Positions 30,195 through 60,830 are shown, numbered from the stretch's first letter. The stretch is 64,000 nt of DNA from a virus (IMGVR_UViG_2974521666_000001), one strand, 5' to 3'. Program-made: numbers and translations. Notes: generated from the letters alone by a model not told the origin.

Positions 30195-30332
30195 CCATCC
30201 ATCCTCGGCACAGCGAGTTCAAACTCGTTGTGCCATTAGGGCACTCAAGCAAACTCAATCAGTTTGAGTGCTCCAATGGCACAATGAGTCCGGTTGAGCC
30301 ACAAAAGTTTACGGACAAAGAGGATGGTAACC
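30195..30332 (+). promoter_or_regulatory. leader of first right-arm gene: anti-motif CCATCCATCCTC plus two mutually exclusive hairpins
   Basis: Hairpin A (30207-30234) and hairpin B (30228-30284) share TTGTGCC (30228-30234). CCATCCTC (30199-30206) is complementary to GAGGATGG (30320-30327) at the start site. Confidence 0.45.
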
Positions 30333-30617
30333 ATGTTCGTCGAAACCCGCACCACTGCTGACGAAGTCAAGGCCGAGATGCTCCACGAAGTGGAGTGCTT
30401 GGCCAATCACTTGCTGAGTCAACCGCAAACGGTTGCATGGCATCCCAGTTACACCACCATCTCGAGCCTCCAAGAGGACCGGGCACGGTTTTCTGGGGCC
30501 GTGCGGCTGGTGCGACGGGTGTACGGAGACAAGTTCCCTGATGAGCTGGAGGCCAAAATCGTTCTTGCCATAGAGGCTAACGAACAGGCCATCCAGATCA
30601 AGCGCAGGAAGCGTTGA
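30333..30617 (+). CDS. hypothetical protein (94 aa)
   Basis: ATG 5 nt after AAAGAGGATGG, inside ORF 30294..30617. Confidence 0.6.
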   Translation: MFVETRTTADEVKAEMLHEVECLANHLLSQPQTVAWHPSYTTISSLQEDRARFSGAVRLVRRVYGDKFPDELEAKIVLAIEANEQAIQIKRRKR

Positions 30618-30787
30618 TGCCCACGCCTAGGCCCAACGTTAGTTGGGTAGACGGACACGGCCACCGGCTGTTCGGCACCTTCGTGTGTTGGGACCCTAAG
30701 GATTCCGACTACGCGATTTGCCGGACGGCCGTTGGCCGGTTCAAGGCACGCATCCATAAGTCAAACCTCACCTATGAATGCGGTTAG
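30617..30787 (+). CDS. hypothetical small protein (56 aa), not in ORF track
   Basis: TGATG coupling to the upstream stop. Open frame MPTPRPNVSWVDGHGHRLFGTFVCWDPKDSDYAICRTAVGRFKARIHKSNLTYECG. It fills a gap that would otherwise be noncoding. Confidence 0.4.
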   Translation: MPTPRPNVSWVDGHGHRLFGTFVCWDPKDSDYAICRTAVGRFKARIHKSNLTYECG

Positions 30788-30797
30788 GAGAAAGACG

Positions 30798-31040
30798 ATG
30801 GCACTCACCAATGTTCAAAAGGCTGATTTGGCACATGCCTTGCTGATCCAGGCAGGAAACCTTGTCGAGTACAGGGACCACTACGTGGATCAGTTGCACT
30901 CCAGCCTTCAGAATGCGACTACGGAAGACATTGCGACACAGCTCACTATCTGGCTGCAGCGTCTTCCTGGTGAATGGTGGGACTCAAGGCTTCCGAAGCC
31001 AGACGCTCTTCGAGACGGGCGAAAAGGTTACGGAAGCTAA
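30798..31040 (+). CDS. hypothetical protein (80 aa)
   Basis: ATG 30798 after an AGGAG RBS, inside ORF 30732..31040. Confidence 0.55.
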   Translation: MALTNVQKADLAHALLIQAGNLVEYRDHYVDQLHSSLQNATTEDIATQLTIWLQRLPGEWWDSRLPKPDALRDGRKGYGS

Positions 31041-31049
31041 GAGTCCAAC

Positions 31050-31089
31050 GCGCTACTGGCAGACACCCTGGTTCGAGTCCAGGGAGCGC
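31050..31089 (+). ncRNA. tRNA-like acceptor/T-arm minihelix TLM-1
   Basis: GCGCT-ACTGGCAGACA-CCCTGG-TTCGAGT-CCAGGG-AGCGC. 40 nt, 9-nt gap after stop 31040. Confidence 0.75.
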
Positions 31090-31132
31090 ACAAAGCTGTA
31101 GCGCCGCTACGGCACAACAGAGAGGATGGGAC

Positions 31133-31390
31133 ATGAGCAACTTCGAGTACCAGGCCGTTGATCCTGCTGCCGCTGCAGTCGGGTTTGGCAAGCCGTTGCT
31201 GAACAACCCCAGGTGGGCCGAGGAAAACTGTGCTGACACACTGCTTTCCGTAAAGGCCGGTGGGGCCGGTGATCTGTACCTCACAGATCAGCAGGGCAAC
31301 GTGTTCGTCAAGTTCGATTCGGGGCATCCGGATCAGGTCCACGCCGCAGCACGGTGGTTGTCGGTGTTCATACAGTCCATCGAGAGCTAA
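31133..31390 (+). CDS. hypothetical protein (85 aa)
   Basis: ATG 3 nt after AGAGGATGG, inside ORF 30974..31390. Confidence 0.6.
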   Translation: MSNFEYQAVDPAAAAVGFGKPLLNNPRWAEENCADTLLSVKAGGAGDLYLTDQQGNVFVKFDSGHPDQVHAAARWLSVFIQSIES

Positions 31391-31399
31391 AGGCTCTCA

Positions 31400-31439
31400 G
31401 CCGCACTGGCAGACATCAAGGTTCGAGTCCTTGAGCGGC
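31400..31439 (+). ncRNA. tRNA-like minihelix TLM-2
   Basis: GCCGC-ACTGGCAGACA-TCAAGG-TTCGAGT-CCTTGA-GCGGC. 40 nt, 9-nt gap after the stop. Identical to TLM-6. Confidence 0.75.
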
Positions 31440-31484
31440 ACAAAGCCATACAGTCCGTATGGCCCTTACGAGAGGATGGAAGCA

Positions 31485-31739
31485 ATGATCTGCGCACACA
31501 TTCACTACGGTCCTTTCAATTACGGACACAAGAAGTTTGACAACGTCAAGCAGGCCATGGACTACTTCGAGAACGAGGTTGCCGGTGTCGACTTTGGCAC
31601 TGGCACTTCCGAGCAGAACATGGATTTGTATGAGTCCGAATGGGATTGCCCGTGCAACGACCACATGAACTTCCATGATTACCCCATGGAGCGATTCGTG
31701 GTTGCGGCCGACGGCACTCCTGTGGCGGTGGCCATCTGA
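31485..31739 (+). CDS. hypothetical protein (84 aa)
   Basis: ATG 31485 after GAGAGGATGG (in-frame ATG 31476 is the alternative). Confidence 0.55.
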   Translation: MICAHIHYGPFNYGHKKFDNVKQAMDYFENEVAGVDFGTGTSEQNMDLYESEWDCPCNDHMNFHDYPMERFVVAADGTPVAVAI

Positions 31740-31930
31740 TGGCCGCTGAAGAGTCTGATCTTCAAACTGTGTACGACTGCTACTCAACAATGTTGGAGGC
31801 AGCAGGGGTGCCGGGTGACGAAATCGCCTGGTACCAAGAGTACATGGCCAACATCTTGGATAACGTTGGCACACAAGAAGATCTGCAAGAGGTAGTCAAA
31901 GCCATGGTGTACCTGAAAGGGAGACAGTAA
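31739..31930 (+). CDS. hypothetical protein (63 aa)
   Basis: TGATG coupling to the upstream gene. Confidence 0.55.
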   Translation: MAAEESDLQTVYDCYSTMLEAAGVPGDEIAWYQEYMANILDNVGTQEDLQEVVKAMVYLKGRQ

Positions 31931-31938
31931 GCTAAATC

Positions 31939-31978
31939 GGGGCAACGGTTTTCGGGGAGGTTCGATTCCTCCCGTCCC
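31939..31978 (+). ncRNA. tRNA-like minihelix TLM-3
   Basis: GGGGC-AACGGTTTTCG-GGGAGG-TTCGATT-CCTCCC-GTCCC. 40 nt, 8-nt gap after the stop. Confidence 0.75.
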
Positions 31979-32017
31979 ACTAGGCAACCAAAGTGGTTGC
32001 TAGAGAGGATGGGAACA

Positions 32018-32311
32018 ATGGCTACAATCAAGGCGCGCAACTTTCTCTGCCGCAACTGCCACGTGGACGTTAACGTCACCGAGTGTGGCTGCAACGCAGG
32101 CTCTTACTCAATCACCTCTTGGGATTGTGCTCAGTGCGGCATTGAGGTTGTGTCCAGCGGTGGTCGAGACGTTGACTGCTCCAAGTGCGGGGCCTGCTAC
32201 AACGGCTCCGGCCAGCGTCTTCGCAGCGATTGGCGTAGCAATCCATCGGTTTACGACGACAACGTCGGTGACCTGGAGGGCTACGAACTGCAGCACGCCA
32301 ACGACTGGTGA
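32018..32311 (+). CDS. Cys-rich (zinc-ribbon-like) protein (97 aa)
   Basis: ATG after GAGAGGATGG. Contains CRNC, CGC, CAQC and CSKCGAC pairs. Confidence 0.6.
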   Translation: MATIKARNFLCRNCHVDVNVTECGCNAGSYSITSWDCAQCGIEVVSSGGRDVDCSKCGACYNGSGQRLRSDWRSNPSVYDDNVGDLEGYELQHANDW

Positions 32312-32324
32312 CGTAATCACCGGA

Positions 32325-32364
32325 GGGCCAACGGTTTTCGTAGGGGTTCGATTCCCCTAGGCCC
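32325..32364 (+). ncRNA. tRNA-like minihelix TLM-4
   Basis: GGGCC-AACGGTTTTCG-TAGGGG-TTCGATT-CCCCTA-GGCCC. 40 nt, 13-nt gap after the stop. Confidence 0.75.
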
Positions 32365-32406
32365 GCTAGGTCGTTCGTACGGGACGACCTCACAGAAAGG
32401 ATGGAA

Positions 32407-32745
32407 ATGGCAGCACGAAAGATGAAGGTTGTCAAGTCGATTCAGGTCGAGAAGCCGACGAGGTTTGCCCGCGTTCGGAAGGGCAAGGGGCAGAACAGCA
32501 CTCGAGAGCTTCAGGCCCGGTCACTGAAGGCGGCGGCAAACCACGGTCAGCCGTGGAGCGACGACGAGGTGGCCCGAATCGTGGCCGGAATACAGAGAGA
32601 CGAAACGTCTTTCGAACTTGCGCTGGCTGTAGGACGAAGCTACTACAGCACCATGAGCGCCAGGTCACATGTGGCGTTTGCTATGCGCCACGCCAACGCC
32701 TTGGAGTTGGCCGTCAAGCAGGCAGCGCGGGCCAAGCACCACTGA
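32407..32745 (+). CDS. hypothetical protein (112 aa)
   Basis: ATG 32407 (or in-frame 32401) after GAAAGGATGG. Confidence 0.55.
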   Translation: MAARKMKVVKSIQVEKPTRFARVRKGKGQNSTRELQARSLKAAANHGQPWSDDEVARIVAGIQRDETSFELALAVGRSYYSTMSARSHVAFAMRHANALELAVKQAARAKHH

Positions 32746-32760
32746 CAACCCAATCGTGTA

Positions 32761-32801
32761 GCCCTGGTAAGGCGTACTGAGGTTCGATTCCTCAGCAGGG
32801 C
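32761..32801 (+). ncRNA. tRNA-like minihelix TLM-5
   Basis: GCCCTG-GTAAGGCGTA-CTGAGG-TTCGATT-CCTCAG-CAGGGC. 41 nt, 15-nt gap after the stop. Confidence 0.7.
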
Positions 32802-32844
32802 ACTTTGCCCGGCAAACCAGCCGGCAATTAGAGAGGATGGGAAA

Positions 32845-33012
32845 ATGGTGAATGTGTACAAGATTGACGGTTTGCAGCTGCAGGCGATCAGGGGTTATCT
32901 CAAGAACCCTGATACTCATACCCTTCGGATCATGGTTGATGAGGAGGGTGTGAAGGTCAAGTTCAATCAAGGGCCTTGGTCCCCACCACTCGGGGAACTT
33001 GAAAGGAACTGA
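32845..33012 (+). CDS. hypothetical small protein (55 aa), not in ORF track
   Basis: ATG 4 nt after GAGAGGATGG. Open frame MVNVYKIDGLQLQAIRGYLKNPDTHTLRIMVDEEGVKVKFNQGPWSPPLGELERN. Confidence 0.5.
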   Translation: MVNVYKIDGLQLQAIRGYLKNPDTHTLRIMVDEEGVKVKFNQGPWSPPLGELERN

Positions 33013-33013
33013 A

Positions 33014-33238
33014 ATGGCCGATATCCTATTGGCACATGGTGAAAGCACTTCAGGCACCAAACACACCCTGGAGATCGATCCAATCTACGGAAGTCATGAC
33101 TCAATTGATTGGCTGAAGTGGACTATCATGGGTCCCAACGGGAAACGGCACGCAAGTGTCAAGCTGACCTTGGCTGATGCCGAGGGCATTGCAAACCACC
33201 TGTTGGACATCGTAGAAGAGGCCCGTCGTAACGCATGA
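33014..33238 (+). CDS. hypothetical protein (74 aa)
   Basis: ATG 33014, 1 nt after the upstream stop, with a GAAAGGA RBS. Inside ORF 32999..33238. Confidence 0.55.
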   Translation: MADILLAHGESTSGTKHTLEIDPIYGSHDSIDWLKWTIMGPNGKRHASVKLTLADAEGIANHLLDIVEEARRNA

Positions 33239-33246
33239 CAGGGCGA

Positions 33247-33286
33247 GCCGCACTGGCAGACATCAAGGTTCGAGTCCTTGAGCGGC
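33247..33286 (+). ncRNA. tRNA-like minihelix TLM-6
   Basis: Same 40 nt as TLM-2. The 43-nt identity spans 33246-33288 and 31399-31441. 8-nt gap after the stop. Confidence 0.75.
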
Positions 33287-33333
33287 ACTAGGACAGTGGC
33301 ACGGGGCCACTGCCTTAACGAAAGAGGATGGAA

Positions 33334-34263
33334 ATGACCACCATTGAGAACAGTGTGAATGCAGTTGAGCTGATCGATCTGTCGGCAGCTTGCGAGAAGG
33401 CTGGAATCGGTGGGACAGTTCGCAATACGGAAGTTGGCACCGGTACGCTGTACGTGGTGGCCAAGCTTCCTGACGGGAACTGGGCTTTGGACTACGAAAC
33501 TGATGTGATCGACATTGCTGCTTTTCAGCAGGAGGGTTGGCTCGTTGTGTCCACGGCCACAGACGGCGAGGAGACAGAGCAGGATACCAAACCTGCTACG
33601 TACCAAGACTTCTTCGAAGGTTTGCCCACCTGGTCATACTTCTGGGACGGCCGAAACATTGACTGCCAGTACATCTTTACTGGCTGGAAGCAAAACAAGT
33701 ACGGCGACAACGTTCCTGCGTATGTCCACCACCGGTACATGACAACCAGCTTGATGTCCATCTTGGACCTGGATCACGAATGCCAGTGGGAGGCATTCAC
33801 AGTCAACGGTACGCCCAAGGAGGCCAGTCGCGATTTGCGGCAGGCAATCCGGACGATGTACTCGGCCTTGAAAGAGGCAGAGTCGTACAAGCAACTGCAT
33901 AAGGAAGAAGGTGAGCGGCTGGAGGCAGTCAAGCGTGATTTCCGAAAGCTGAACGAACACATCAATTCCTACGCTGAAGAAACCCACATGTGCGGCGACT
34001 ATGAGCGCCGTATCTACGGCTGGAACGAGACCTTCGAGGTCATGGAGCTCGAGGGCCGTGTTCGCGATTACAATGTGCCCGTACGGGTCCCTGGAGTGTT
34101 CGGGGACACTGAGGTCTGGGTTTCGGGTATCAAGGCCCGTACTCCAGAAGAGGCACGGGAACAGGTGCAGCGCATGACCGCTCAGGAAGTGCTGAACAAC
34201 CTGTATCAATCCGGTTACAGCATGCCGGAGTGGACCGTCGGCGATAGTACTCCGAGGGCCTAG
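33334..34263 (+). CDS. hypothetical protein (309 aa)
   Basis: ATG 33334 (or in-frame 33328) after AAGAGGATGG. Confidence 0.6.
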   Translation: MTTIENSVNAVELIDLSAACEKAGIGGTVRNTEVGTGTLYVVAKLPDGNWALDYETDVIDIAAFQQEGWLVVSTATDGEETEQDTKPATYQDFFEGLPTWSYFWDGRNIDCQYIFTGWKQNKYGDNVPAYVHHRYMTTSLMSILDLDHECQWEAFTVNGTPKEASRDLRQAIRTMYSALKEAESYKQLHKEEGERLEAVKRDFRKLNEHINSYAEETHMCGDYERRIYGWNETFEVMELEGRVRDYNVPVRVPGVFGDTEVWVSGIKARTPEEAREQVQRMTAQEVLNNLYQSGYSMPEWTVGDSTPRA

Positions 34264-34278
34264 CCCCAAAGCAGGGCA

Positions 34279-34318
34279 GGGTGACTGGCAGACATCAGGG
34301 TTCGAGTCCCTGACACCC
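34279..34318 (+). ncRNA. tRNA-like minihelix TLM-7
   Basis: GGGTG-ACTGGCAGACA-TCAGGG-TTCGAGT-CCCTGA-CACCC. 40 nt, 15-nt gap after the stop. Confidence 0.75.
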
Positions 34319-34363
34319 ACAAAGCCGTAGGCGTTCTACGGCCTAGCAAGAGAGGATGGAACA

Positions 34364-34597
34364 ATGCCGCTACCAAGGGGGTTCAAGTTCATACGCTGCC
34401 CCGAATGCAAACGCAAAGGTGTGTCATGTAGATTCAGCGGGCGAACCGGGGAGGACTACTGGCAATGCCGCTACTGCAGCTGGTACTGCTATGCAGGAGG
34501 GGAGGACCGGATTGACGTTGAGCGTCGACGAGCACTTGCTGCAGCCAATCCCGGTGAGCCTATATGGGTTACAGCACTGGACGATGACACACTGTAA
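34364..34597 (+). CDS. zinc-ribbon-like protein (77 aa)
   Basis: ATG 5 nt after AGAGGATGG. Contains CPEC..C and CRYCSWYC. Confidence 0.6.
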   Translation: MPLPRGFKFIRCPECKRKGVSCRFSGRTGEDYWQCRYCSWYCYAGGEDRIDVERRRALAAANPGEPIWVTALDDDTL

Positions 34598-34603
34598 CGG
34601 CAA

Positions 34604-34643
34604 GCCTGACTGGAAGGCACCGACGTTCAAGCCGTCGGCTGGC
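34604..34643 (+). ncRNA. tRNA-like minihelix TLM-8 (slightly degenerate)
   Basis: GCCTG-ACTGGAAGGCA-CCGACG-TTCAAGC-CGTCGG-CTGGC. 40 nt with one U-U mismatch in the outer stem. 6-nt gap after the stop. Confidence 0.6.
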
Positions 34644-34685
34644 GCGGGGTGAGCCACTATGGCTTACTACAAGAAAGGGGATGGA

Positions 34686-35051
34686 ATGAAGCACGTTATC
34701 GCTATTTCAGGCAATGACCTTGCGTACCTTCGCAAGGCAGCCTTGTCGGCGTTTCAAGAGGCCGGTCAGATTGGCGTACTACGCATTTACATTACCGATG
34801 ACGGTAAGCTCATGTTTGGAGCACGGGGTCACGTAACCAAAGTGATTGGTAGGCCCATTAAGGCTTCCGATGAAGAGCGCGAAATGGGTTTGAGTGCCCC
34901 AAGCGGAAATCCGTACGCCAACATTGACGACGATGAAGATGCGCAAGATGCTGCTGAGGCAGTAGGCCTCTCGCTTGAAGAACGTGTTGCACACCTGGAG
35001 GAACTGGTCAAGGGCGAGAACATCGTTGTGATCAACCTCTCAAAGTCCTAG
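34686..35051 (+). CDS. hypothetical protein (121 aa)
   Basis: ATG 34686 after AAAGGGGATGG, inside ORF 34659..35051. Confidence 0.55.
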   Translation: MKHVIAISGNDLAYLRKAALSAFQEAGQIGVLRIYITDDGKLMFGARGHVTKVIGRPIKASDEEREMGLSAPSGNPYANIDDDEDAQDAAEAVGLSLEERVAHLEELVKGENIVVINLSKS

Positions 35052-35063
35052 CAGCGCTAGGCA

Positions 35064-35106
35064 GCCGGCCACGGTTGGTTAATAGTGGTTCGAGTCCACT
35101 ACCGGC
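35064..35106 (+). ncRNA. tRNA-like minihelix TLM-9
   Basis: GCCGG-CCACGGTTGGTTAA-TAGTGG-TTCGAGT-CCACTA-CCGGC. 43 nt with a 14-nt linker. 12-nt gap after the stop. Confidence 0.7.
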
Positions 35107-35153
35107 ACGAAGGCAACAACCCGTTGCCTTACATCAAGATTCGAGGATGGAAC

Positions 35154-35555
35154 ATGAAACGTAATGTGAAAGAAGTCGTGGTTGCATTTCTTGTGACCAT
35201 GGGCCTGTTCTTCGCTCTCGCAGCAATCCACAACGCCGCCGTAACCAATGTGGCCAAGGCAGATCCAGGCGTTGGCTGCGAGACAATTCGTTGGGGTTTC
35301 CTAGGAAGCCAAAGGCGCACCATCTGCGACGGGCCGCGCAGGCCTGACGGCAGCTGGGAGCGTTTGCGTCTGATCTGGACGCCAGCGGGTTACGTGCCAC
35401 GCTACACCTACTGCGGTAGCTACTCATGCTCTTCCAGCGGTGGCTACTACCGGGAGGAGACGCTTCAGGGCAAGGAAACGTATGTGGTGTTTGACCACAA
35501 CGTGCTGCCCGATGAGCCGGGTTGGCTGCCACCGGGAACGGACATTATCCGATGA
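35154..35555 (+). CDS. secreted or membrane-anchored protein (133 aa)
   Basis: ATG 3 nt after CGAGGATGG. N-terminal hydrophobic segment VVVAFLVTMGLFFALAAI. Cys-rich mature part. Confidence 0.6.
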   Translation: MKRNVKEVVVAFLVTMGLFFALAAIHNAAVTNVAKADPGVGCETIRWGFLGSQRRTICDGPRRPDGSWERLRLIWTPAGYVPRYTYCGSYSCSSSGGYYREETLQGKETYVVFDHNVLPDEPGWLPPGTDIIR

Positions 35556-35734
35556 GAGACTGCAGCGAGCATGGAACCAATAGCAACGTATGCGATTTCG
35601 CCGGCTGCTTTGGCCCGGCAAAACCGTACCGTTGCATCTGCGGTGACTTCAAAACGGATTCCCCGAGAGTGCTAGACGTGCATATCCTCTGGGCGAATAA
35701 GTTCAGAGCCAATGTGGAGCACGGCTGGCCGTAG
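35552..35734 (+). CDS. Cys-rich small protein (60 aa)
   Basis: ATGA coupling. Inside ORF 35522..35734. Confidence 0.5.
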   Translation: MRDCSEHGTNSNVCDFAGCFGPAKPYRCICGDFKTDSPRVLDVHILWANKFRANVEHGWP

Positions 35735-35742
35735 CCACAAGA

Positions 35743-35782
35743 GCCGCAATGGCATACACCCAGGTTCGAGTCCTGGGGCGGC
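35743..35782 (+). ncRNA. tRNA-like minihelix TLM-10
   Basis: GCCGC-AATGGCATACA-CCCAGG-TTCGAGT-CCTGGG-GCGGC. 40 nt, 8-nt gap after the stop. Confidence 0.75.
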
Positions 35783-35828
35783 ACGAGTCCTGAGCAATCG
35801 GCTTGGGGCACTATGAAAGAGGATGGAA

Positions 35829-36050
35829 ATGCGAGTAGCAGATGCAGTGAGGAAGACCTCTGGCATTCATCGGCTCAAGGTGGGCGAGATGTTCACCGAC
35901 GCAGATGGTGATTGGGAGGTGACCAGAGAGCCTGTGGTTGATGGCGATTGGGTCGTCGTGTACCTGAGGCCCGTGCCCTTTCACGAGGGCCAGCGCGCTA
36001 GGGCCTACCGATATCCCTTGTCAACTCAGGTGAAGATGCTGCGTAAGTAA
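35829..36050 (+). CDS. hypothetical protein (73 aa)
   Basis: ATG 35829 (or in-frame 35823) after AAGAGGATGG. Confidence 0.55.
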   Translation: MRVADAVRKTSGIHRLKVGEMFTDADGDWEVTREPVVDGDWVVVYLRPVPFHEGQRARAYRYPLSTQVKMLRK

Positions 36051-36094
36051 AGCACTCTGCTGTGGCTACGGGGATTGTGCCAAGTAGAGAGATA

Positions 36095-36159
36095 CCCTGC
36101 AACGGTTTTGGCGTGTTCGAGGGTTACACACCAACAGAGGTTCGATTCCTCTGGCAGGG
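36095..36159 (+). ncRNA. expanded tRNA-like element TLM-11 (extra arm in linker)
   Basis: CCCTGC-[34-nt linker AACGGTTTTGGCGTGTTCGAGGGTTACACACCAA]-CAGAGG-TTCGATT-CCTCTG-GCAGGG. The linker can form GGCGTG/CACACC around a TTCGAGG-containing loop. Confidence 0.6.
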
Positions 36160-36202
36160 ACGACGGTGGGCCACCAGGTCTACCGAACGAAAGGGGATGG
36201 AA

Positions 36203-36619
36203 ATGCGTACGTTTACCTTTGGGACCCAGTATGTCCCAGAGACAAAGGCAGTCCTGAAGTGGGGCAAGTACGCCGACGGCAGCACTGCACTACGTGTTGT
36301 GTCGGAGTACGGTGAGCCTCTGGCTACGGCCACAGTCTGCCTGCGCAACTACAACCTTCAGCCGGGTAAAGGCAATGTCTTCATCTACGGGGACTACAGC
36401 GAACATGTCGGAGTGTTCGAGGCCCTGCGGAAGGCCGGGATTGTCGGTGACCCTGTGAACCGAATTCCCATGGGAGGCTTTGGCGCTTTCGCGTACGAGG
36501 CTCCCCTGCTGTGGAGCGAGCACGAGCCAACCTGTGAGGGTATGGCAGACGTGGACTACCACACCCAAGTTGATGCCATGCTCGAACGAGTGGCACAGCA
36601 AGACAACAAGTCCCAGTAG
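36203..36619 (+). CDS. hypothetical protein (138 aa)
   Basis: ATG 36203 (or 36197) after AAAGGGGATGG. The upstream part of ORF 36062.. covers TLM-11 and is rejected. Confidence 0.55.
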   Translation: MRTFTFGTQYVPETKAVLKWGKYADGSTALRVVSEYGEPLATATVCLRNYNLQPGKGNVFIYGDYSEHVGVFEALRKAGIVGDPVNRIPMGGFGAFAYEAPLLWSEHEPTCEGMADVDYHTQVDAMLERVAQQDNKSQ

Positions 36620-36627
36620 ACTGGGCA

Positions 36628-36667
36628 GCCCGAAAGGCATACACGCTGGTTCGAGTCCAGCGCGGGC
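36628..36667 (+). ncRNA. tRNA-like minihelix TLM-12
   Basis: GCCCG-AAAGGCATACA-CGCTGG-TTCGAGT-CCAGCG-CGGGC. 40 nt, 8-nt gap after the stop. Confidence 0.75.
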
Positions 36668-36709
36668 ACGAGCGCCATAGTGGCGTATCAAGAAAGGGGA
36701 TGGACTGAG

Positions 36710-36916
36710 TTGCATAGAGAAACGGAATTCGTGCTCGCCCGCGAGCTCAGCGATGGCAGCCTACCTCACATGCCACCGGCAGATGAGCTGCCACATCGTG
36801 GCCGAATCACAAGGATTCTCAACGACTCTGGGGTGTTGACAATCGAGTGTGAGGACGGTATGCTCAGCCGAGGGATGAACGCCCCGGTTGAACGGTACAA
36901 GAGGGAGGCTCAGTGA
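36710..36916 (+). CDS. hypothetical protein (68 aa)
   Basis: TTG 36710, 6 nt after AAAGGGGATGG. The track start GTG 36680 lies inside the spacer hairpin. Confidence 0.45.
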   Translation: MHRETEFVLARELSDGSLPHMPPADELPHRGRITRILNDSGVLTIECEDGMLSRGMNAPVERYKREAQ

Positions 36917-37038
36917 ACAAACTGCGGAAGTTGTTGCGAGCCTACAGAGTTTCGCAGCACAGACGCCGGCTGAATGACGAAGCCCATATCGCTTGGGCCA
37001 GATCACTACTGGCAGAACGTGAACGACCGGTAGACTAG
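36913..37038 (+). CDS. hypothetical small protein (41 aa), not in ORF track
   Basis: GTGA coupling. Its stop lies 12 nt before TLM-13, matching the stop-then-minihelix rule. Confidence 0.35.
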   Translation: MNKLRKLLRAYRVSQHRRRLNDEAHIAWARSLLAERERPVD

Positions 37039-37050
37039 TACAGCACAGGA

Positions 37051-37090
37051 GTCCGACTGGCAGACATCAGGGTTCGAGTCCCTGACGGAC
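37051..37090 (+). ncRNA. tRNA-like minihelix TLM-13
   Basis: GTCCG-ACTGGCAGACA-TCAGGG-TTCGAGT-CCCTGA-CGGAC. 40 nt. The core is identical to TLM-7 with a compensated outer stem. Confidence 0.75.
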
Positions 37091-37148
37091 ACGACTTGGA
37101 GCCACGAGGGAGACTCCAAGCACCACAACAGAAAGAGGATGGGAAACA

Positions 37149-38345
37149 ATGGGCGCAGAAACCATGGAGTGGTACAACAACTTCTGCCTGATCGGGCACA
37201 CCAATCAGCGTGGAAAGAGTTGGCACTATATGGAGTCCATGCAGGGAGAGGAGCCGAATCATTACCCCGAGGGCATCCCGTATGACGATGTTGTACGGCG
37301 GCTATTCAATTGGAAGCCAATGCTTACCCGTACGGCAAACATGATTCCATGTGAGTTGCTACGGGATGAGGCAGGACAGCCCTTGACCGACGACCAGGGA
37401 CGCCGTCGCTACGAACCTGAGCCGTCAGTATGGGTTCAGCGTGTGGACAGCAACGGCAACCCAGTGTTCCACGAGGGCCGTCCGGTCAACGTTCCCATGA
37501 AACTGGTAGAGGTCCATGACAAACGGGGCCTGGTCCGTAGCGACAACTACCTGGAGCTGGGGCACCCCGGCAAGAACTACAAGATCCACGACTACGAGGA
37601 GTGGCTCTTGCAGTTGCTATCCAACGTGATTGGGGACACTCTCGACATTTGGTCAGCAATCCTGTTGCGCAATGGCGCTCAGGCCTGTGTCCAGGTGGCT
37701 CTTCCTGAGACGGCTCACGACAGCACAACTGGAATGGACTTTGTTCCATACGTCCACTGCTATACGAGCCTAGACAGTAGTCTGGCTACCACTTTCGCTG
37801 GCCAAACGCTGTTGATCGTGTGCGACAACACGATGACTGCGGCCAACGCAAGAGCAGCCAAGGCAGGGCGGCAGTACAAGGCACGTCACACGTCCGGAAG
37901 CCTTGAGACCCACAAGATCTCTGAGGTCCGGCAAGCCCTGTCGATTATTCACCAAACCGCAGACAGCTCTATGGAATTCTTCCACAAGCTGGCTGCCATT
38001 GAAGTGCCCAACAAGAAGTGGATTGAGGTGCTAGACATCATCATTCCACCGGGTGATCCCAACAAGGACAGCACCAGGACCGTTCGTGGTCGTGAGTCCA
38101 AGAGGGAACACCTGAACAGCGTGTACCAAAGTGACCCTATGGCGAATACCTGGAAAGGTACTGGCCTTGGGGTGGTACAGGCAATCAACACCTACGCAAC
38201 CCACTACGCGCCACTGCGCGGCCGCTCCCGTGTTCAGGGCAACGCTGCCAAGCTGGTGGACGGTGAGTTTGCCAAGGTGGACAGCAAGAGCGTGCAGGCC
38301 CTTGCTCAAGTGATGGATATGCCAGAGTTGTTGACTACCAACTAG
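37149..38345 (+). CDS. hypothetical protein (398 aa), possibly DUF932/TIGR03299-like phage-plasmid protein
   Basis: ATG after AAGAGGATGG. The family guess is from memory of its size and N-terminal features only. Confidence 0.35.
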   Translation: MGAETMEWYNNFCLIGHTNQRGKSWHYMESMQGEEPNHYPEGIPYDDVVRRLFNWKPMLTRTANMIPCELLRDEAGQPLTDDQGRRRYEPEPSVWVQRVDSNGNPVFHEGRPVNVPMKLVEVHDKRGLVRSDNYLELGHPGKNYKIHDYEEWLLQLLSNVIGDTLDIWSAILLRNGAQACVQVALPETAHDSTTGMDFVPYVHCYTSLDSSLATTFAGQTLLIVCDNTMTAANARAAKAGRQYKARHTSGSLETHKISEVRQALSIIHQTADSSMEFFHKLAAIEVPNKKWIEVLDIIIPPGDPNKDSTRTVRGRESKREHLNSVYQSDPMANTWKGTGLGVVQAINTYATHYAPLRGRSRVQGNAAKLVDGEFAKVDSKSVQALAQVMDMPELLTTN

Positions 38346-38353
38346 TCTGGTGC

Positions 38354-38393
38354 GGGTGACTGGCAGCCACCGGGGTTCAAGGCCCCGGCACCC
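38354..38393 (+). ncRNA. tRNA-like minihelix TLM-14
   Basis: GGGTG-ACTGGCAGCCA-CCGGGG-TTCAAGG-CCCCGG-CACCC. 40 nt, 8-nt gap after the stop. Last copy of the array. Confidence 0.7.
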
Positions 38394-38565
38394 ACTTACT
38401 CGTGATGGATAACAGCCTGGGTTACTAGCCTGAGCATCTCAGTGTTAGTCCTACGGCTATCTCATTTTTCGTGCCAAGCAGGCTCTCGTGTGTTATGATC
38501 CGGGGCAGGGTTAGGGCCTAGGCCCGACGCCCTAGACTCCCTACGGAACACACAGAGGATGGCCC

Positions 38566-39976: not shown

Positions 39977-40306
39977 ATGATTATTGAGTCAACACGTGAA
40001 TTCATGATTTCGTGCGATTCGTTTAGGATCGAATGCAACCAATGTGGTGATTGGTCAAATGGCTTGTCCCGCAACGATCTTGATGAGTTCAAAGCCAAGC
40101 ATGAGCACAAGAACGAACGCTTCTATGTCCAATGCAATTCAGAGGGCGAAGATTTGGCCGTAGTGAAAATGACCTACGATCAACAGGCCGTAATCGAAAA
40201 GTTTGAACGAGATTCGGCGCGAAAACGTCAGTGGCGCAAAGAGAATGAGGGCAAATTTGCCACTCATGAGGAAATGATGGAGGCGTACAAAAAGGAATTT
40301 GGTTGA
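39977..40306 (+). CDS. hypothetical protein (109 aa) in low-GC island
   Basis: ATG ORF. Local composition is visibly AT-richer than its surroundings. Confidence 0.5.
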   Translation: MIIESTREFMISCDSFRIECNQCGDWSNGLSRNDLDEFKAKHEHKNERFYVQCNSEGEDLAVVKMTYDQQAVIEKFERDSARKRQWRKENEGKFATHEEMMEAYKKEFG

Positions 40307-52164: not shown

Positions 52165-52168
52165 AGCC

Positions 52169-53739: not shown

Positions 53740-53746
53740 GCCGGTG

Positions 53747-53786
53747 GGGTGAGCGGCACACACCAAGGTTCGAGTCCTTGGCACCC
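53747..53786 (+). ncRNA. tRNA-like minihelix TLM-15 (orphan copy)
   Basis: GGGTG-AGCGGCACACA-CCAAGG-TTCGAGT-CCTTGG-CACCC. 40 nt, 7-nt gap after stop 53739. Confidence 0.7.
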
Positions 53787-53820
53787 ACGGTTCAACAACC
53801 AAGTAACCCTAGGAGATACA

Positions 53821-55143: not shown

Positions 55144-55159
55144 AAGGGGTAGGAAGACT

Positions 55160-57131: not shown

Positions 57132-57535
57132 CACCCCAGGAGAAAATAGTTGAGGCACAACAGCTTTTACGCGAAGCTGCAGCACTTAAAGCTGGCGAAC
57201 CTGTATTGGCCGCAGTGCAACGATACAACGGTGCTCTCGAAGAATACCGTGCCAAGTACGGGAAGACAAAACGAAAGCACTATACCCTCTATCGGTTCCG
57301 TGACGACGAGGACAACCTACTGTACGTTGGTATGACGCGCACCTTCATTAACCGCATGAAAAACCATGCGATGGATAAAGATTGGTGGGAGGACGTATCG
57401 TACATCACTGTGGAGCACTATCCTGACGCTGAATCACTTAGGCAGGCAGAGCTTCACGCGATTGCAACAGAGAATCCGCTACACAACCAAGCAGATCTAC
57501 CAATGCCAGCGAAACCCCTTGTCTCGCATCAGTAG
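57128..57535 (+). CDS. GIY-YIG-like nuclease domain protein
   Basis: YTLYRF-x9-LYVGMT..INRMKNH..E pattern. GTGA coupling. Confidence 0.55.
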   Translation: MTPQEKIVEAQQLLREAAALKAGEPVLAAVQRYNGALEEYRAKYGKTKRKHYTLYRFRDDEDNLLYVGMTRTFINRMKNHAMDKDWWEDVSYITVEHYPDAESLRQAELHAIATENPLHNQADLPMPAKPLVSHQ

Positions 57536-57573
57536 TGGCTACCGGGCGGCGCGACCACTAGATCCAGTGGTTG

Positions 57574-57605
57574 CGTCGTCCCAGGTCACGGGGTAGGCTG
57601 ACCTG
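57574..57605. promoter_or_regulatory. hairpin built from CCCAGGTCA / TGACCTG sites upstream of primase gene
   Basis: CAGGTCA (57582-57588) pairs with TGACCTG (57599-57605). The same site family recurs at 60.5-60.8 kb. Confidence 0.45.
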
Positions 57606-57718
57606 TTCACTGCCCTAACCTCTAACGATATGAGACGCCCTGAGCGTCAACCTCACGGCCGAAAACACAGTCACCTAGCGGATCTAGCGCGACGGCGCGC
57701 GAAAGAGGATGGACAAAC

Positions 57719-60466
57719 TTGAACGCACCCAAGAACATCGGAGCGGCAGCACCATTCGCGAAAGCGGCCTTGGAGTACACCTTGAAGGGGTGGAACGTTC
57801 TGCCGTTGCCTCCCAACAAGAAGAAATCACCACCCAGCAAAGAGGACGACGAACAGGGTCTAGGGTTTACGGGGCGCAACGGCCGACTTGCCACACGCGA
57901 TGACATAGATGCCTGGATACAGGACAAGCGGTGGCGCAAGGGCAACATTGCGGTACGGCCCGGCAACGAGGTCACCAACGACGGTGAGGCCTACGAGGTC
58001 ATAGGGATTGACGTTGACGACTACGACGGGAAGAGCGGCGCGGCTCACCTGGAAGAGCTGATCAAAACCTATGGGCCACTACCAAATACGTGGACAAGCT
58101 CGGCGCGCTCGGACGGCAAGAGCGGCATCCGCTGGTTCCTGACTCCAGTTGGCTACGAGTACATGGGCAAGCCGGTGCTGCCATCCACAGGCCGCGCCAG
58201 CGATAGTATCGAAATCGTACAGAGAGTGCACCGTTACGGCCTGGTGTTCCCCTCGATGCACCCCGACGGCATGCAATACCGTTGGTACGATAGGGGACAG
58301 GCCCCTGACGGCATCCACGTCAACGACCGTATCCCTAGGGTGCAAGAGCTGGCTGTACTGCCGGAGCGCTGGTGGAAGTTCTTGACTCGCAACGGCGTTG
58401 CCAACGCAGGTGGCGCTGTGATCGACATGCAGAGCACCAATGCACAGCTACGCAACTGGCAGAAGAAGCGCTGGGTCGACGGTGAAGACATGTGCGACAT
58501 CATGACCAACGCCCTCAACCGGCACCTGGAAGACGTGGACAGTGCCAGCGACCACCACGAGCCGCTTATCCGTGCGCACTGGAGCCTGTTGCGCCTAGGG
58601 GCGGAAGGACACACAGGCTGGGCCACAGCCTGCCACGTTCTCGAGCAGAGCTGGGCGGATCGTGTAGCGGCAGATCAAGTTCGGAGTGTTGCTGAAACCA
58701 AGTACGAGATTGCCCGGTCCCGCTACGGCACGCTGCGAAAGATCAAGGGCGAGTACGTTCAGTTCAAGCGCAAAGGCCTAGAGTACCTAGAGACTCTGGA
58801 TCCCTGTGAGTGCCGTCGCAACTGGGAGCCTCCCAAGCAACGCAAACCTCCTAAGAGGCCTACGCAATACGAGCGCAACGAGGACGGCAATGCACAGCAC
58901 TTCCTGCATCTTAACCGTGGCAACGTGCGGTTTGTCCCCAACTATCCTGAGTCCCAAGGCGGTAGGTGGATGCTGTTCAGAGACGGCCGTTGGGTGGTGG
59001 ACAACAAGGAAACCCTAGTGCGCCATATGTTCCGACGCGTCAAAACCAGGCAGCAACGGGATGCTCAGCGCCGGTTACAGCTGGCTGCTGCTGCTGTGGC
59101 TGCCGCCGGTGGTACAGCTGCCGCTACGCCTGCGCAGAAGGCAGAGCTGGCAGAGGCCAGAGCGTGGGTGGCGTTCGCGCTTGAGAGCGGCAACAAGGCC
59201 CGTGTGAGCAACAGCTTGGCTCAGGCCCAAAGCTTTCCGGACATTGCACTGTTGTACGAAGAGCTGGACAACAACCCAATGTTGCTTCCAGTGGCCAACG
59301 GGGTGATCAGGTTCCACACCAGGGAAGAGGTGCTGGCTGGAGCCAAACCCTTTGAGTGGGTACAAGATCCAGACGTGATCAAGCACGAGCTGGTCACGCA
59401 GAACACGCATGTGCCGTACATTCCGTTGCGAGAGCAGAAAGACCACCCCGACGCTGAGGTTCGCGAAGGCTACAAACGGTTCTGGGAGTACATGAACAAG
59501 TTCCTGCGCAGCCAGCTTGGTAAAGAGGCGTGGGAGTACACCCTTAAGCTACTAGGGGTTTCGATCCTCGGCGTGAACACCAAAAAGGCTGTGTTCCTAG
59601 TGGGTTTGCCACACACCGGCAAGAGCACCCTGCAGAACATGATGGACCACGCCCTAGGGGACCTATCGATTTGGCGCGAACCAGCCGTATTCGAGGACAC
59701 AACGTTCAAGTCCGCGCTGGCAGAGGCCCTGTCTCGCAGGGTCATGATGGTGGGAGAACTGGGCCAAAAGCATATAGACGCAGGCCTATTCAAGCGCATC
59801 ACAGGTGGAGACGAGGTGTCGTGCCAGCTCAAGAACATCAACAAGCCGGTGACGCTGAAGCCTAGGTGTACCATCATCTCTGGCTGCAACCAGGCCCCAG
59901 AGGTGCCAGACGTGGACGAAGCGACAAAGGAACGCTTTGTGGTCGTACCCTTTAGGCACCAGGTCACCGACGAGGAGCGCGACCCCAACGCCATTGACGA
60001 TCTGCCTGTGCAGTGCCGGTTTGCCATGCTAGCAACGTTGGTAGAGTTCGCCTCTCGTGGTTTGGTGGAGGGCGTTCACATCGTGCCCGATGAGCTGCAG
60101 TTTGAGACTAAGGAATTCGTGTCCAGTCTGAGCGAGCTGTCGGACTTCCTGAAGGAGACAGTGGTCCCGTCGCCACCTAGTGCCTGGAAGAAGTACGCAC
60201 GCAATGACCGTCTGGACGTGGAGAACCCCAAGCCACGGTGGCCCGACGAGCTGTGCCTTGGAGATCGAGACTTGTACAAACAGTACGAAAGATGGTGCAC
60301 ATCCAACGGCATCGCGCCAAGCGAGAAGCTTAGCAAGACTAAGTTCACACGCAAGCTGAAGGACAGTGGTTGGGTGCAGGACGGCAGCTGGACAGCGAAC
60401 AACCAACGGCGATGGCTTGGTTGGAGTTTCGCACCAACCGTTGCAAGGGTGAAGCGGGCCGACTGA
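57719..60466 (+). CDS. bifunctional primase-polymerase / SF3 (D5-like) helicase
   Basis: TTG 6 nt after AAGAGGATGG. Prim-pol motifs GWNVLPLPP and IGIDVDDYD. Walker A GLPHTGKST and Walker B MMVGE. Confidence 0.8.
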   Translation: MNAPKNIGAAAPFAKAALEYTLKGWNVLPLPPNKKKSPPSKEDDEQGLGFTGRNGRLATRDDIDAWIQDKRWRKGNIAVRPGNEVTNDGEAYEVIGIDVDDYDGKSGAAHLEELIKTYGPLPNTWTSSARSDGKSGIRWFLTPVGYEYMGKPVLPSTGRASDSIEIVQRVHRYGLVFPSMHPDGMQYRWYDRGQAPDGIHVNDRIPRVQELAVLPERWWKFLTRNGVANAGGAVIDMQSTNAQLRNWQKKRWVDGEDMCDIMTNALNRHLEDVDSASDHHEPLIRAHWSLLRLGAEGHTGWATACHVLEQSWADRVAADQVRSVAETKYEIARSRYGTLRKIKGEYVQFKRKGLEYLETLDPCECRRNWEPPKQRKPPKRPTQYERNEDGNAQHFLHLNRGNVRFVPNYPESQGGRWMLFRDGRWVVDNKETLVRHMFRRVKTRQQRDAQRRLQLAAAAVAAAGGTAAATPAQKAELAEARAWVAFALESGNKARVSNSLAQAQSFPDIALLYEELDNNPMLLPVANGVIRFHTREEVLAGAKPFEWVQDPDVIKHELVTQNTHVPYIPLREQKDHPDAEVREGYKRFWEYMNKFLRSQLGKEAWEYTLKLLGVSILGVNTKKAVFLVGLPHTGKSTLQNMMDHALGDLSIWREPAVFEDTTFKSALAEALSRRVMMVGELGQKHIDAGLFKRITGGDEVSCQLKNINKPVTLKPRCTIISGCNQAPEVPDVDEATKERFVVVPFRHQVTDEERDPNAIDDLPVQCRFAMLATLVEFASRGLVEGVHIVPDELQFETKEFVSSLSELSDFLKETVVPSPPSAWKKYARNDRLDVENPKPRWPDELCLGDRDLYKQYERWCTSNGIAPSEKLSKTKFTRKLKDSGWVQDGSWTANNQRRWLGWSFAPTVARVKRAD

Positions 60467-60494
60467 AGAGAAGGGTTTCCTCAGGTTGATCAAC

Positions 60495-60830
60495 AGGCTG
60501 ACCTGGGGAAATGGAAGTGATGATGAAAGGTGATGAGTTGCTGCGGGAGACATCGTCCCAGGTCAGGGCGTTTTTCAAGTTTGCTAATCATCAGTCCTCA
60601 CTTTAAATAGAATGATGTAGAGAGGGAAGAAAATACGCAATGTGCTCTAAAGTAATGCACACACATGCATTTCTTTCCGCGCACACATTTTCATGTAGAC
60701 GCTGTGAAGTCAGCTGAAACTGAGGACTGATGATACGGCCCATTTGCACTGGTCAGGGCGTTGCGGCCATCCTCACTTTTCGCGGGCGAGCCCCTGACCT
60801 GGGCAAATAGACAAATCAAACTGAGGATAG
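60495..60830. promoter_or_regulatory. repeat-rich intergenic hub with AT-rich core (candidate origin/operator region)
   Basis: 12-bp site CCCAGGTCAGGG at 60557-60568 (+) and 60792-60803 (-), with partial copies at 60498-60507 (-) and 60751-60758 (+). Inverted 16-mers at 60587-60602 and 60719-60734 flank an AT-rich ~115 bp. Confidence 0.5.

Follow-up and report, generated by a model that had tools for sequence, protein, structure and literature searches.

Conserved structured RNAs in putative leaders of Mycobacterium phage Send513 carry candidate anti-Shine-Dalgarno elements

The Start-Associated Sequences (SAS/ESAS) of Cluster K mycobacteriophages (Pope et al. 2011, PMC3203893) are asymmetric repeats located a few nucleotides 5' of start codons, almost entirely in one orientation, which combine a Shine-Dalgarno core with conserved bases for which 16S rRNA offers no partner, and which serve non-structural right-arm genes only, after intergenic gaps. 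The K1 phages additionally have one reverse-oriented copy unlinked to a gene start, which in Anaya (K1) lies within a 385-nt noncoding gap. Whether RNA or protein reads the motif was left open in that paper. The repeats of Mycobacterium phage Send513 (Cluster R), the source of the 64,000-nt window analysed here, resemble the Cluster K sequences in these sequence features. However, the Send513 motif is AGAGGATGG and not GGGATAGGAGCCC, it is preceded by a tRNA-like minihelix and a hairpin instead of the 17-bp inverted repeat of ESAS, and its reverse copies lie within conserved structured RNAs, for which we propose a pairing role. Another known element present in Send513 is the GOLLD RNA (RF02032; Weinberg 2009; cryo-EM in PMC12286853), the expression of which was reported to rise during phage-induced lysis (PMC12286853). 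A 1.16-kb gap of Send513 holds a bona fide phage GOLLD, with a tRNA-like linker insert as in other GOLLDs, but the anti-motif of this gap sits in a separate upstream hairpin that is kept in GOLLD-less relatives.

An exact search of the window found the anti-motif CCATCCTC three times on the + strand (30199-30206, 43038-43045, and 60767-60774), with the copy at 43038 reading CCATCCTCT and extending to 43046, and its complement GAGGATGG 13 times on the + strand, in 12 cases as AGAGGATGG. The tally for the complete Send513 genome of 71,547 bp was identical (13 GAGGATGG and 3 CCATCCTC). As the first-pass annotation had claimed, all three anti-motif copies are outside annotated CDS, in the 8.4% of the window that is noncoding, and there are none elsewhere on the + strand. 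Its placement of them in the three largest noncoding regions is only partly right, as the gaps concerned rank first, second, and fourth in size; a 413-nt gap at 63414-63826 contained no copy in the exact search. Under a first-order Markov model, 0.05 copies would be expected in the noncoding + strand, giving a Poisson P(≥3) of ~2e-5. This value overstates the case, because 60 different 8-mers reach at least three copies in the noncoding DNA of the window; an empirical P would lie closer to the range 1e-3 to 1e-2.

Each GAGGATGG copy stands 2-6 nt 5' of a start codon (ATG or TTG), in the Shine-Dalgarno position, and all copies lie within 30320-57712. The first one, AGAGGATGG with the gp43 start codon (30319-30335, + strand), is associated with two possible in-frame ATGs, at 30324 (annotated) and 30333. 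Ten more are found within 31121-38562 on the + strand (31122, 31472, 32005, 32833, 33324, 34352, 35143, 35819, 37135, and 38555), each 2-6 nt 5' of an ATG, and most of them terminate an intergenic module of ~90 nt. The others are AGAGGATGGTA with the ATG (44152) of gp69, a Cas4/RecB-family exonuclease gene (44137-44154, + strand), and AGAGGATGG with the start codon of the primase gene gp89, a TTG at 57719 (57704-57721, + strand). Two relatives that carry GOLLD, L243 and L244, have AGAGGATGGTA as well. Variant forward motifs are AAAGGATGG at gp50, and AAGGGGATGG at gp60 and within annotated gp59; the 16 initiation regions counted previously thus comprise 13 exact motifs, the remainder being these variants.

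The early genes of Send513 are also punctuated by ~14 tRNA-like minihelices, a signature present in 116 viral contigs. These consist of acceptor-like and T arms only (9 of 11 pairs with compensatory changes), and the possibility that they are full tRNAs was rejected, as they form no cloverleaf with an anticodon arm. ARAGORN called no tRNA in the window. In the 60 related loci scanned, it called none where the pattern had its hits, but reported a few unrelated tRNAs elsewhere and one tmRNA overlapping the hit in L074; Rfam gave no tRNA match at E ≤ 5.

The first anti-motif copy (30199-30206, + strand; an exact match within CCATCCATCCTC) is an exposed part of a previously undescribed structured leader RNA of ~270 nt (29941-30208, + strand), which ends at its 3' side with the invariant block ACAACGTTTTCCATCCATCCTCGG (30185-30208), and has no match in Rfam. 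Its nucleotide identity to the Cuke and MrMiyagi elements is 75-78% over 267 nt, although the identity between the exonuclease proteins is no more than ~52%. RNAalifold applied to four lineages returned 84 pairs, 14 of them with compensatory changes, and the G-U pairs fit the + strand; L255 contributes an additional A-U to G-C compensatory change in a long-range helix. The 24-nt block ending in copy 1 is unchanged in four lineages; of L255 and L254, one has two substitutions and the other four, placed at the motif's edge or beyond it. Five lineages (Send513, MrMiyagi, Cuke, Fowlmouth, and L255) share the motif itself without change, and the L254 version is CCATCCATCCTT.

Between this copy and the gp43 motif, sequence and folds indicate two mutually exclusive hairpins, H1 (30208-30235) and H2 (~30223-30287), which have the segment GTTGTGCC in common (30208-30287, + strand). 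Similar mutually exclusive hairpins of different sequence are present in MrMiyagi, Cuke, and L255, and the combination of motif, hairpins, and complementary first ribosome-binding site recurs in Fowlmouth too. In ViennaRNA folds, 30199-30206 pairs with 30320-30327, the gp43 site, over 8 bp (P = 0.6-0.73). Minimum-free-energy folding gives the identical pairing for MrMiyagi, Cuke, Fowlmouth, and L255, so that in five of the six lineages copy 1 is predicted to pair with the ribosome-binding site that comes first downstream; in L254, where that site is 720 nt from the motif, the predicted fold pairs only part of it. The paired bases are all invariant, and hence this pairing is without covariation. 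The computed pairing and its conservation in other lineages lend support to a putative cis sequestration switch between 30199 and 30320, as suspected in the first-pass annotation. A terminator-like hairpin lies directly 3' of the site 1 motif; in the Fowlmouth group it has the form GGTGCAAC-TTCG-GTTGCACC-TTT(T), the TTT(T) being found in this group only.

The second copy (TACCATCCTCT, 43036-43046, + strand) is displayed in the ~70-nt loop of hairpin HP1 (43003-43108, + strand), which folds and alignment define as having a stem of 15-17 bp. Aligning seven lineages yielded 15 consensus pairs, 6 of them with compensatory changes, and the sole conserved block of the loop is CCATCCT(C/T). In Send513, the loop motif is partly masked by weak local pairs (per-base unpaired probability of 0.13-0.95 in the fold). 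Hairpin HP2, GGGTAGAGAGA...TCTCTCTAC (43106-43187, + strand), recurs throughout the seven lineages, its stem sequence changed (e.g., GGTTGCACAG/CTGTGCAACC, GGACACCAGG/CCTGGTGTCC, and GGTTGTGGG/CCCACAACC), and is followed by a terminator-like hairpin that has no clear U-run in Send513. The 16-bp helix reported previously to close the loop is real, but the large structured region to which it was assigned consists of the HP1-HP2 leader (43003-43187) and a separate GOLLD. The latter occupies ~43323-44118 on the + strand, with the 5' domain from ~43323 and the Rfam 3' domain at 43658-44118 (RF02032, + strand; 180.4 bits, above the gathering score of 150, with E = 4e-49), and its linker contains a truncated tRNA-like T-arm at 43812. 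Its 5' boundary was drawn from the alignment with IMG/VR GOLLDs and with plasmid pCBMA213_1, in which a tRNA ends exactly at the start of the 5'-domain alignment; two other GOLLDs align only from ~43322. The GOLLD starts ~285 nt downstream of the anti-motif. That the anti-motif at 43038 is a part of GOLLD was rejected, since HP1 and the motif are found in L137, L240, L245, and Fowlmouth, all of which are without GOLLD at this locus.

The nine-base complementarity noted earlier at site 2 proved to be longer: 43036-43046 is perfectly complementary over 11 nt to AGAGGATGGTA at 44137-44147, the exonuclease site. In six relatives, the corresponding complementarity is 5-10 bp; it amounts to 10-11 bp in the GOLLD-bearing lineages (Cluster R and two others) and 5-9 bp elsewhere, with duplex energies of -12 to -26 kcal/mol across lineages. 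Two apparent compensatory events, each single, keep it: L240 has CCAUCCUU against AGGGAUGG, with a C-G to U-A change and a U.G pair, and L137 has UACCACC against GGUGGUA. The counter-example is Fowlmouth, which keeps CCATCCTC in HP1, but whose exonuclease ribosome-binding site, AGGTGGT, gives only ~5 bp (-12.4 kcal/mol); no GGATGG occurs within 300 nt. In L137, a second CCATCCTC makes a local hairpin with GAGG just 5' of the helicase ORF. The most consistent partner of the site 2 anti-motif is the ribosome-binding site of the next gene, a cis relation; the predicted pairing is a pseudoknot, a type of structure beyond the scope of nested folding.

The third copy (60767-60774) lies in the loop of a local hairpin, ATTTGCACTGGTCAGGG/CCCTGACCTGGGCAAAT (60742-60808, + strand), with 6 of its 8 bases unpaired at P > 0.9. 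It is limited to Cluster R, as the homologous gaps in L250, L251, L252, and Fowlmouth do not contain it. We regard it as a lineage-specific copy of uncertain significance, which may have arisen by chance.

Counts, conservation, covarying helices around the motif, and thermodynamic predictions are direct results of this analysis. Since copies 1 and 2 are deeply conserved and exposed in structured leaders, they most likely pair with the forward motif to control translation. Our preferred, though still tentative, reading, at somewhat below even probability, is that CCAUCCUC is an anti-Shine-Dalgarno-type element of leader RNAs, with gp43 and gp69 as its main targets, reached in cis. The leader regions would be included in the mRNAs, and copies 1 and 2 would be single-stranded or loop-displayed on the transcribed strand in the 29941-30208 element and in HP1-HP2 (43003-43187). 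Each anti-motif could then pair in vivo with GAGGAUGG of the first downstream gene (gp43 or the exonuclease gene gp69), occluding the ribosome-binding site and repressing translation. At site 1, the mutually exclusive hairpins between anti-motif and motif would decide whether the pairing forms, which would place the first early gene under the control of a translational switch. At site 2, the loop-to-ribosome-binding-site pairing would be a long-range pseudoknot, inside which the ~800-nt GOLLD would have been inserted in Cluster R and two related lineages.

A less probable, and in our view doubtful, alternative is that the leaders, possibly released as stable RNAs, act in trans as a regulator or sponge, using CCAUCCUC as a C-rich seed on 13-16 GAGGAUGG initiation regions to shut off or tune early-gene translation, with site 2 co-expressed with abundant GOLLD; this corresponds to the global off-switch or sponge proposed in the first-pass annotation, and such action may coexist with that in cis. 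Actinobacterial small RNAs with a C-rich seed include 6C/B11, Mcr7, and MrsI. Their C-rich unpaired loops or tails likewise meet G-rich ribosome-binding regions of several mRNAs, but the Send513 elements are phage-encoded and embedded in operon leaders. There are 13 exact targets plus variants, and the forward motif is predicted to form stronger duplexes with the anti-motif segments (-14 to -25 kcal/mol) than with the 16S 3' tail (-9 to -14 kcal/mol). Moreover, motif and anti-motifs occur together in every lineage examined, sites 2 and 3 present the anti-motif in loops closed by strong helices, and the site 1 anti-motif directly precedes the terminator-like hairpin with TTT(T) of the Fowlmouth group; the reported increase in GOLLD expression during lysis fits as well. 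In Fowlmouth, the HP1 motif is kept even though it can form only ~5 bp with the exonuclease site and has no good partner nearby, which favours some trans or other role; the early genes of this phage have six exact GAGGATGG sites. On the other hand, consensus scans of all three regions were negative for sigma-70-like promoters, a result that also weighs against the cis reading, the forward motif is the same in all lineages and hence gives no trans covariation signal, site 1 is upstream of the very genes to be silenced, and the HP1 loop motif of Send513 is partly occluded. In addition, the site 2 complementarity follows the local exonuclease site in L240 and L137, something that a seed acting only globally would have no need to do.

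It is improbable that a protein or the ribosome reads the motif and that its complementarity to GAGGAUGG is incidental, as would be the case for an RNA-binding autoregulator, a factor-titrating mimic of the 16S tail, or a double-stranded DNA operator bound either way. At site 1, 12-24 nt are strictly invariant, more than an 8-bp pairing would call for, the extended consensus CCAUCCUCCCC occurs in GOLLD-less lineages without a matching GGGGAGGAUGG target, and protein binding was weighed by the Cluster K authors for their sequences (PMC3203893). However, the best-conserved loop block of one RNA and the conserved tail of the other both match, in exact reverse complement, the most over-represented ribosome-binding-site word of the genome, which makes an incidental match very unlikely; the 13:3 bias between strands and the constant spacing from start codons favour an RNA-level reading, and the surrounding helices covary as + strand RNA. 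The chance landing of three copies of one 8-mer in noncoding DNA is highly improbable as a whole: each strand of a 64-kb sequence should hold ~0.9 copies (the both-strand shuffle mean being 1.75), 60 other 8-mers also reach three noncoding copies, and site 3 is not conserved beyond Cluster R, but the noncoding + strand expectation is far lower, and for sites 1 and 2 chance is refuted by their conservation across six and seven lineages, with flanking proteins only ~50-75% identical to those of Send513 and diverging loop sequence around the conserved sites.

The cis reading would place Send513 beside the known anti-Shine-Dalgarno leaders, namely riboswitch expression platforms, RNA thermometers, and the pseudoknot operators of ribosomal-protein operons and T4 gene 32. 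As in these, an upstream pyrimidine-rich stretch complements the ribosome-binding site, with alternative hairpins between them, and the geometry predicted for site 2 is that of a loop-to-ribosome-binding-site pseudoknot. In contrast to them, the Send513 leaders have no assigned signal (ligand, protein, or temperature), anti-motif and ribosome-binding site are far apart (by 115 nt at site 1 and by ~1.1 kb, with the whole GOLLD enclosed, at site 2), and one anti-sequence is reused at two or three leaders, matching a genome-wide motif.

The window proved to be part of the genome of Mycobacterium phage Send513 (Cluster R, genus Papyrusvirus), with window coordinates equal to genome coordinates minus 7547 and the window extending to the right genome end. 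The + strand carries every gene except gp42, a small doubtful ORF whose annotated length varies among sister genomes, some of which do not annotate it. The gp65 gene (39977-40306, 330 bp) is 96-97% identical to its counterparts in Cluster U phages Patience, Madruga and Labelle, and is missing from Papyrus and Rope, both of Cluster R, whose similarity to Send513 is interrupted precisely at this gene; gp65 has the appearance of a mobile gene acquired by recent exchange.

An exact search of the window returned three + strand copies of the anti-motif CCATCCTC, at 30199, 43038 and 60767 (sites 1, 2 and 3), which are precisely the copies listed in the first-pass annotation, and 13 + strand copies of its complement, the start-associated forward motif GAGGATGG (shuffle mean of 1.75, both strands combined); 12 of the 13 read AGAGGATGG. 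The whole genome contains no extra copy. The gaps that hold the anti-motifs had been taken for the three largest noncoding ones, but they rank first, second and fourth. In annotated noncoding DNA, which makes up 8.4% of the window, 0.05 anti-motif copies would be expected under a first-order Markov model (Poisson P ~2e-5), a probability that is optimistic because 60 other 8-mers, mostly via repeats, also reach at least 3 noncoding copies. We rejected the possibility that the anti-motifs are forward motifs of minus-strand genes, as the ORFs opened by the ATG within each reverse copy are only 5-19 codons long or are antisense and overlap gp68. A larger repeat common to the four large gaps was rejected too, since pairwise local alignment revealed only the 8-mer. 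The pattern CTACCGNATTGGGGA gave 100 matches in viral contigs, almost all of them chance. Cluster R genomes are uninformative on conservation, because they are 97-99% identical in these regions.

The forward motif is located 2-6 nt before the starts of gp43, 46, 47, 49, 51, 53, 54, 58, 61, 62, 69 and 89, and one copy precedes an internal ATG of annotated gp56. This is the position of a Shine-Dalgarno sequence. The 3' tail of 16S rRNA can pair with AGAGGA of the motif and not with its conserved UGG. Predicted duplexes of the motif with this tail have energies of -9 to -14 kcal/mol, and those with anti-motif segments of -14 to -25 kcal/mol.

Site 1 closes a ~270-nt structured leader RNA (29941-30208) upstream of gp43. 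In blastn searches this region was 75-78% identical to Cuke and MrMiyagi and partially similar to Fowlmouth, a comparison set whose exonucleases are only ~52% identical to that of Send513, and the nucleotide similarity stopped exactly at the anti-motif. The 24-mer ACAACGTTTTCCATCCATCCTCGG at site 1 is invariant in all four of these lineages, Send513 included. RNAalifold predicted 84 pairs in the leader, 14 of them with compensatory changes, and paired the first half of the 24-mer with an upstream GGCUGAAAYACGUUGUG. Variants of the block occur in two metagenomic loci, L255 (GCAACGCTTTCCATCCATCCTCGG, with an A-U to G-C compensatory change in the long-range helix) and L254 (...CCATCCATCCTTGG). 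The anti-motif is followed by two mutually exclusive hairpins, conserved in architecture and not in sequence, and then by the ribosome-binding site of the first gene (AGAGGATGG in Send513, GGAGGATGA in the Fowlmouth group and AAGGATGG in L255). Pairing of the anti-motif with this ribosome-binding site was predicted with P = 0.6-0.73 in Send513 (ViennaRNA), and an equivalent pairing is present in the minimum-free-energy folds of MrMiyagi, Cuke, Fowlmouth and L255; in L254 the two are 720 nt apart and the predicted pairing is only partial. As these predictions are conserved, the cis sequestration switch proposed earlier for this site is well supported in silico; every pairing base is invariant among the lineages and so shows no covariation. 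Consensus promoter scans indicated no promoter at site 1. The 1.6-2.0 kb that separate the lysis genes from the first early gene in L254 (6163-8180) and L255 (6351-7965) are ORF-free and contain the region-1 element along with large insertions; no Rfam matches were found there.

Site 2 had been assigned to the loop closed by the long helix of a large structured region. It does lie in the loop of a closing helix, that of hairpin HP1 (43003-43108), which is followed by hairpin HP2 (to 43187); this element, however, is outside the GOLLD RNA that occupies 43658-44118 (Rfam, 180 bits; whole element 43323-44118). The 5' domain of GOLLD begins at ~43322, as aligned with the GOLLDs of an IMG/VR contig and of plasmid pCBMA213_1, in which a tRNA ends at the GOLLD 5' boundary, and the anti-motif is 285 nt upstream of this boundary. 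Moreover, L245, L137, L240 and Fowlmouth carry HP1-HP2 with no GOLLD, and in L243 and L244 the gap is of GOLLD size and contains sequence that matches the 5' domain and the 3' end of GOLLD. The alignment and the GOLLD-less relatives rule out the anti-motif as a GOLLD component. The HP2/GOLLD junction sequence TGTTCTTACACA...AATACTTCG is conserved in L243 and L244. In blastn, the GOLLD gap matched only Cluster R phages and one plasmid, and a GOLLD-core pattern search among genome contigs gave no mycobacterial loci. GOLLD-bearing Send513 has no true tRNA genes; its GOLLD linker contains a truncated tRNA-like element (T-arm at 43812), in the place where the GOLLDs of L019 and L006 nest a real tRNA.

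HP1-HP2 precedes an orthologous exonuclease gene (gp69 in Send513) in six further lineages, whose exonucleases are 53-74% identical to that of Send513. Aligned across the seven lineages, HP1 shows 15 pairs, six with compensatory changes, and a sole conserved loop block, CCATCCT(C/T); the HP2 stems differ wholly in sequence between lineages and always retain pairing. The HP1 loop is complementary to the exonuclease ribosome-binding site over 11 bp in Send513 (UACCAUCCUCU : AGAGGAUGGUA) and 10 bp in L243 and L244 (UACCAUCCUC : GAGGAUGGUA), all with GOLLD, and, among lineages with no GOLLD, over 9 bp in L240 (CCAUCCUU with AGGGAUGGU, with one compensatory change and one wobble), 7 bp in L245 (covering the start codon), 7 bp in L137 (UACCACC : GGUGGUA) and only weakly, over ~5 bp, in Fowlmouth. 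The complementarity is longest where the loop-to-site distance is greatest. A nested helix of 43036-43046 with 44137-44147 enclosing GOLLD had a probability of 0 in ViennaRNA, which models nested folds only; since the anti-motif sits inside the HP1 loop, this pairing would be a pseudoknot. The most economical reading is that of an ancestral exonuclease leader, the loop of which sequesters the ribosome-binding site, with GOLLD inserted later between them. Fowlmouth is a real counter-example to local pairing at site 2, and its weak complementarity keeps a trans or other role alive. In L137, a second CCATCCTC (139-146) is located in a local hairpin (CCTCACAG / CTGTGAGG) with GAGG just before a helicase ORF, a candidate for another cis Shine-Dalgarno-sequestering use of the same word.

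At site 3, a strong hairpin carries the anti-motif in its loop, 130 nt ahead of gp91, whose ribosome-binding site, GAGAGGGAUCG, is only partly complementary to the anti-motif. The homologous gaps of L250 (which lies on the contig of L243), L251, L252 and Fowlmouth do not contain the motif; this copy is Cluster R-specific and may be due to chance. The gap around it (60467-60901) follows the primase gene and contains a terminator-like hairpin with TTTTT (60554-60575), which falls within a block that relatives conserve (GGGACATCGTC.C.GGTCAGGG.GTTTT), as well as two sets of direct repeats, AAACTGAGGA (near 60717 and 60819) and TAGACAAAT; the equivalent gap of Fowlmouth has many iteron-like GGTAACCGAAA repeats instead. 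Another noncoding gap, of 413 nt near the right genome end (63414-63826), has CAGCACGTATTG..TAGC in common with the HP2 loop (about 43133).

Most forward motifs terminate a ~90-nt intergenic module composed of a tRNA-like minihelix, a hairpin, an A-rich linker and the motif. In the minihelix, an acceptor-like stem of 5 bp is linked by an 11-nt connector (ACTGGCAGACA or AACGGTTTTCG) to a T-arm, GGTTCGAGTCC, with GGTTCGANTCC followed by AC. About 14 such T-arms lie on the + strand between early genes (31070, 31420, 31959, 32345, 32781, 33267, 34299, 35087, 35763, 36139, 36648, 37071, 38374 and 53767). Compensatory changes affect 9 of the 11 minihelix pairs (19 copies); ARAGORN and Rfam made no call at them. 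The signature TGGCAKACA-N3-8-GGTTCGANTCC was found in 116 IMG/VR contigs of 27-72% GC (L020-L135), where it usually precedes a ribosome-binding site and ATG, typically 40-70 nt before the ATG. The minihelices may serve as RNase P/Z processing or stabilising punctuation of polycistronic early mRNAs. In L045 (IMGVR_UViG_3300037439_000038, a 72-kb contig of 45% GC), a minihelix is followed by acagAGAGGATGGgaaATG, so the same start motif exists in a phage of much lower GC and similar genome size. Probable annotation errors, the variable gp42 among them, were noted at 35085-35153, 36062-36250, 34264-34362, 53749-53800 and 29578-29739; tRNA-like modules with start motifs fall within the 5' regions annotated for gp56 and gp59, and a tRNA-like element alone within that of gp79, and gp54 probably starts near 34363.

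Taken together, these results favour anti-Shine-Dalgarno action predominantly in cis, to which we give somewhat less than an even chance. A trans regulator or sponge, which may coexist with cis action, is possible at a lower probability, as cis has the more specific support: at site 1 the anti-motif is predicted to pair locally in 5 of 6 lineages, and at site 2 it tracks the neighbouring ribosome-binding site. That the motif is instead read by a protein, by the ribosome or at the DNA level seems unlikely; the dominant ribosome-binding-site word of the genome has its exact complement in two independent conserved RNA elements, the forward motif has a 13:3 strand bias and the surrounding helices covary on the + strand, all of which disfavours a protein or DNA-level reading. 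Chance is very improbable, being excluded at sites 1 and 2 by conservation. More speculatively, and rather doubtfully, the seed CCAUCCUC of the conserved leader RNAs would act as a phage-encoded RNA reader of the start-associated motif that out-competes the 16S anti-Shine-Dalgarno in cis and trans and times translation of a class of early genes separated by tRNA-like punctuation, with seed hairpin and target clamping GOLLD in Cluster R. If this holds, it would identify the binding partner of start-associated sequences and link both GOLLD and the tRNA-like elements with the control of translation.

Mycobacteriophage start-associated sequences have been unexplained since 2011, and the exact complement of one, now found conserved in two new structured RNAs, is a concrete, testable candidate for its RNA partner. 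Two RNA families with no Rfam entry emerge from our analysis, one being the early leader of ~270 nt and the other HP1-HP2. The analysis also places GOLLD, a functionally enigmatic RNA, as an insertion between an anti-Shine-Dalgarno loop and a ribosome-binding site, and brings to light a tRNA-like element that is widespread in intergenic positions and may act in the processing of polycistronic phage mRNAs. The M. smegmatis phage system is tractable for testing these readings. Literature searches returned nothing on phage tRNA-like intergenic elements or Cluster R motifs, and no description of these RNAs, their start-motif link or the GOLLD insertion, which are, as far as the literature searched shows, undescribed. 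Sequestration by anti-Shine-Dalgarno sequences is an established mechanism, as are C-rich seeds. The nearest published parallel to the Send513 forward motif is the Cluster K start-associated sequence, whose reader was left as 'either RNA or protein' and which has, in Cluster K1 genomes, a single reverse-oriented copy away from any gene start (PMC3203893). In Anaya, this copy, GGCCTCCTATCCC (L253 34871, genome position 59870), is on the transcribed strand within the 385 noncoding nucleotides that separate gp96 from gp97, a parallel to the anti-motifs of Send513.
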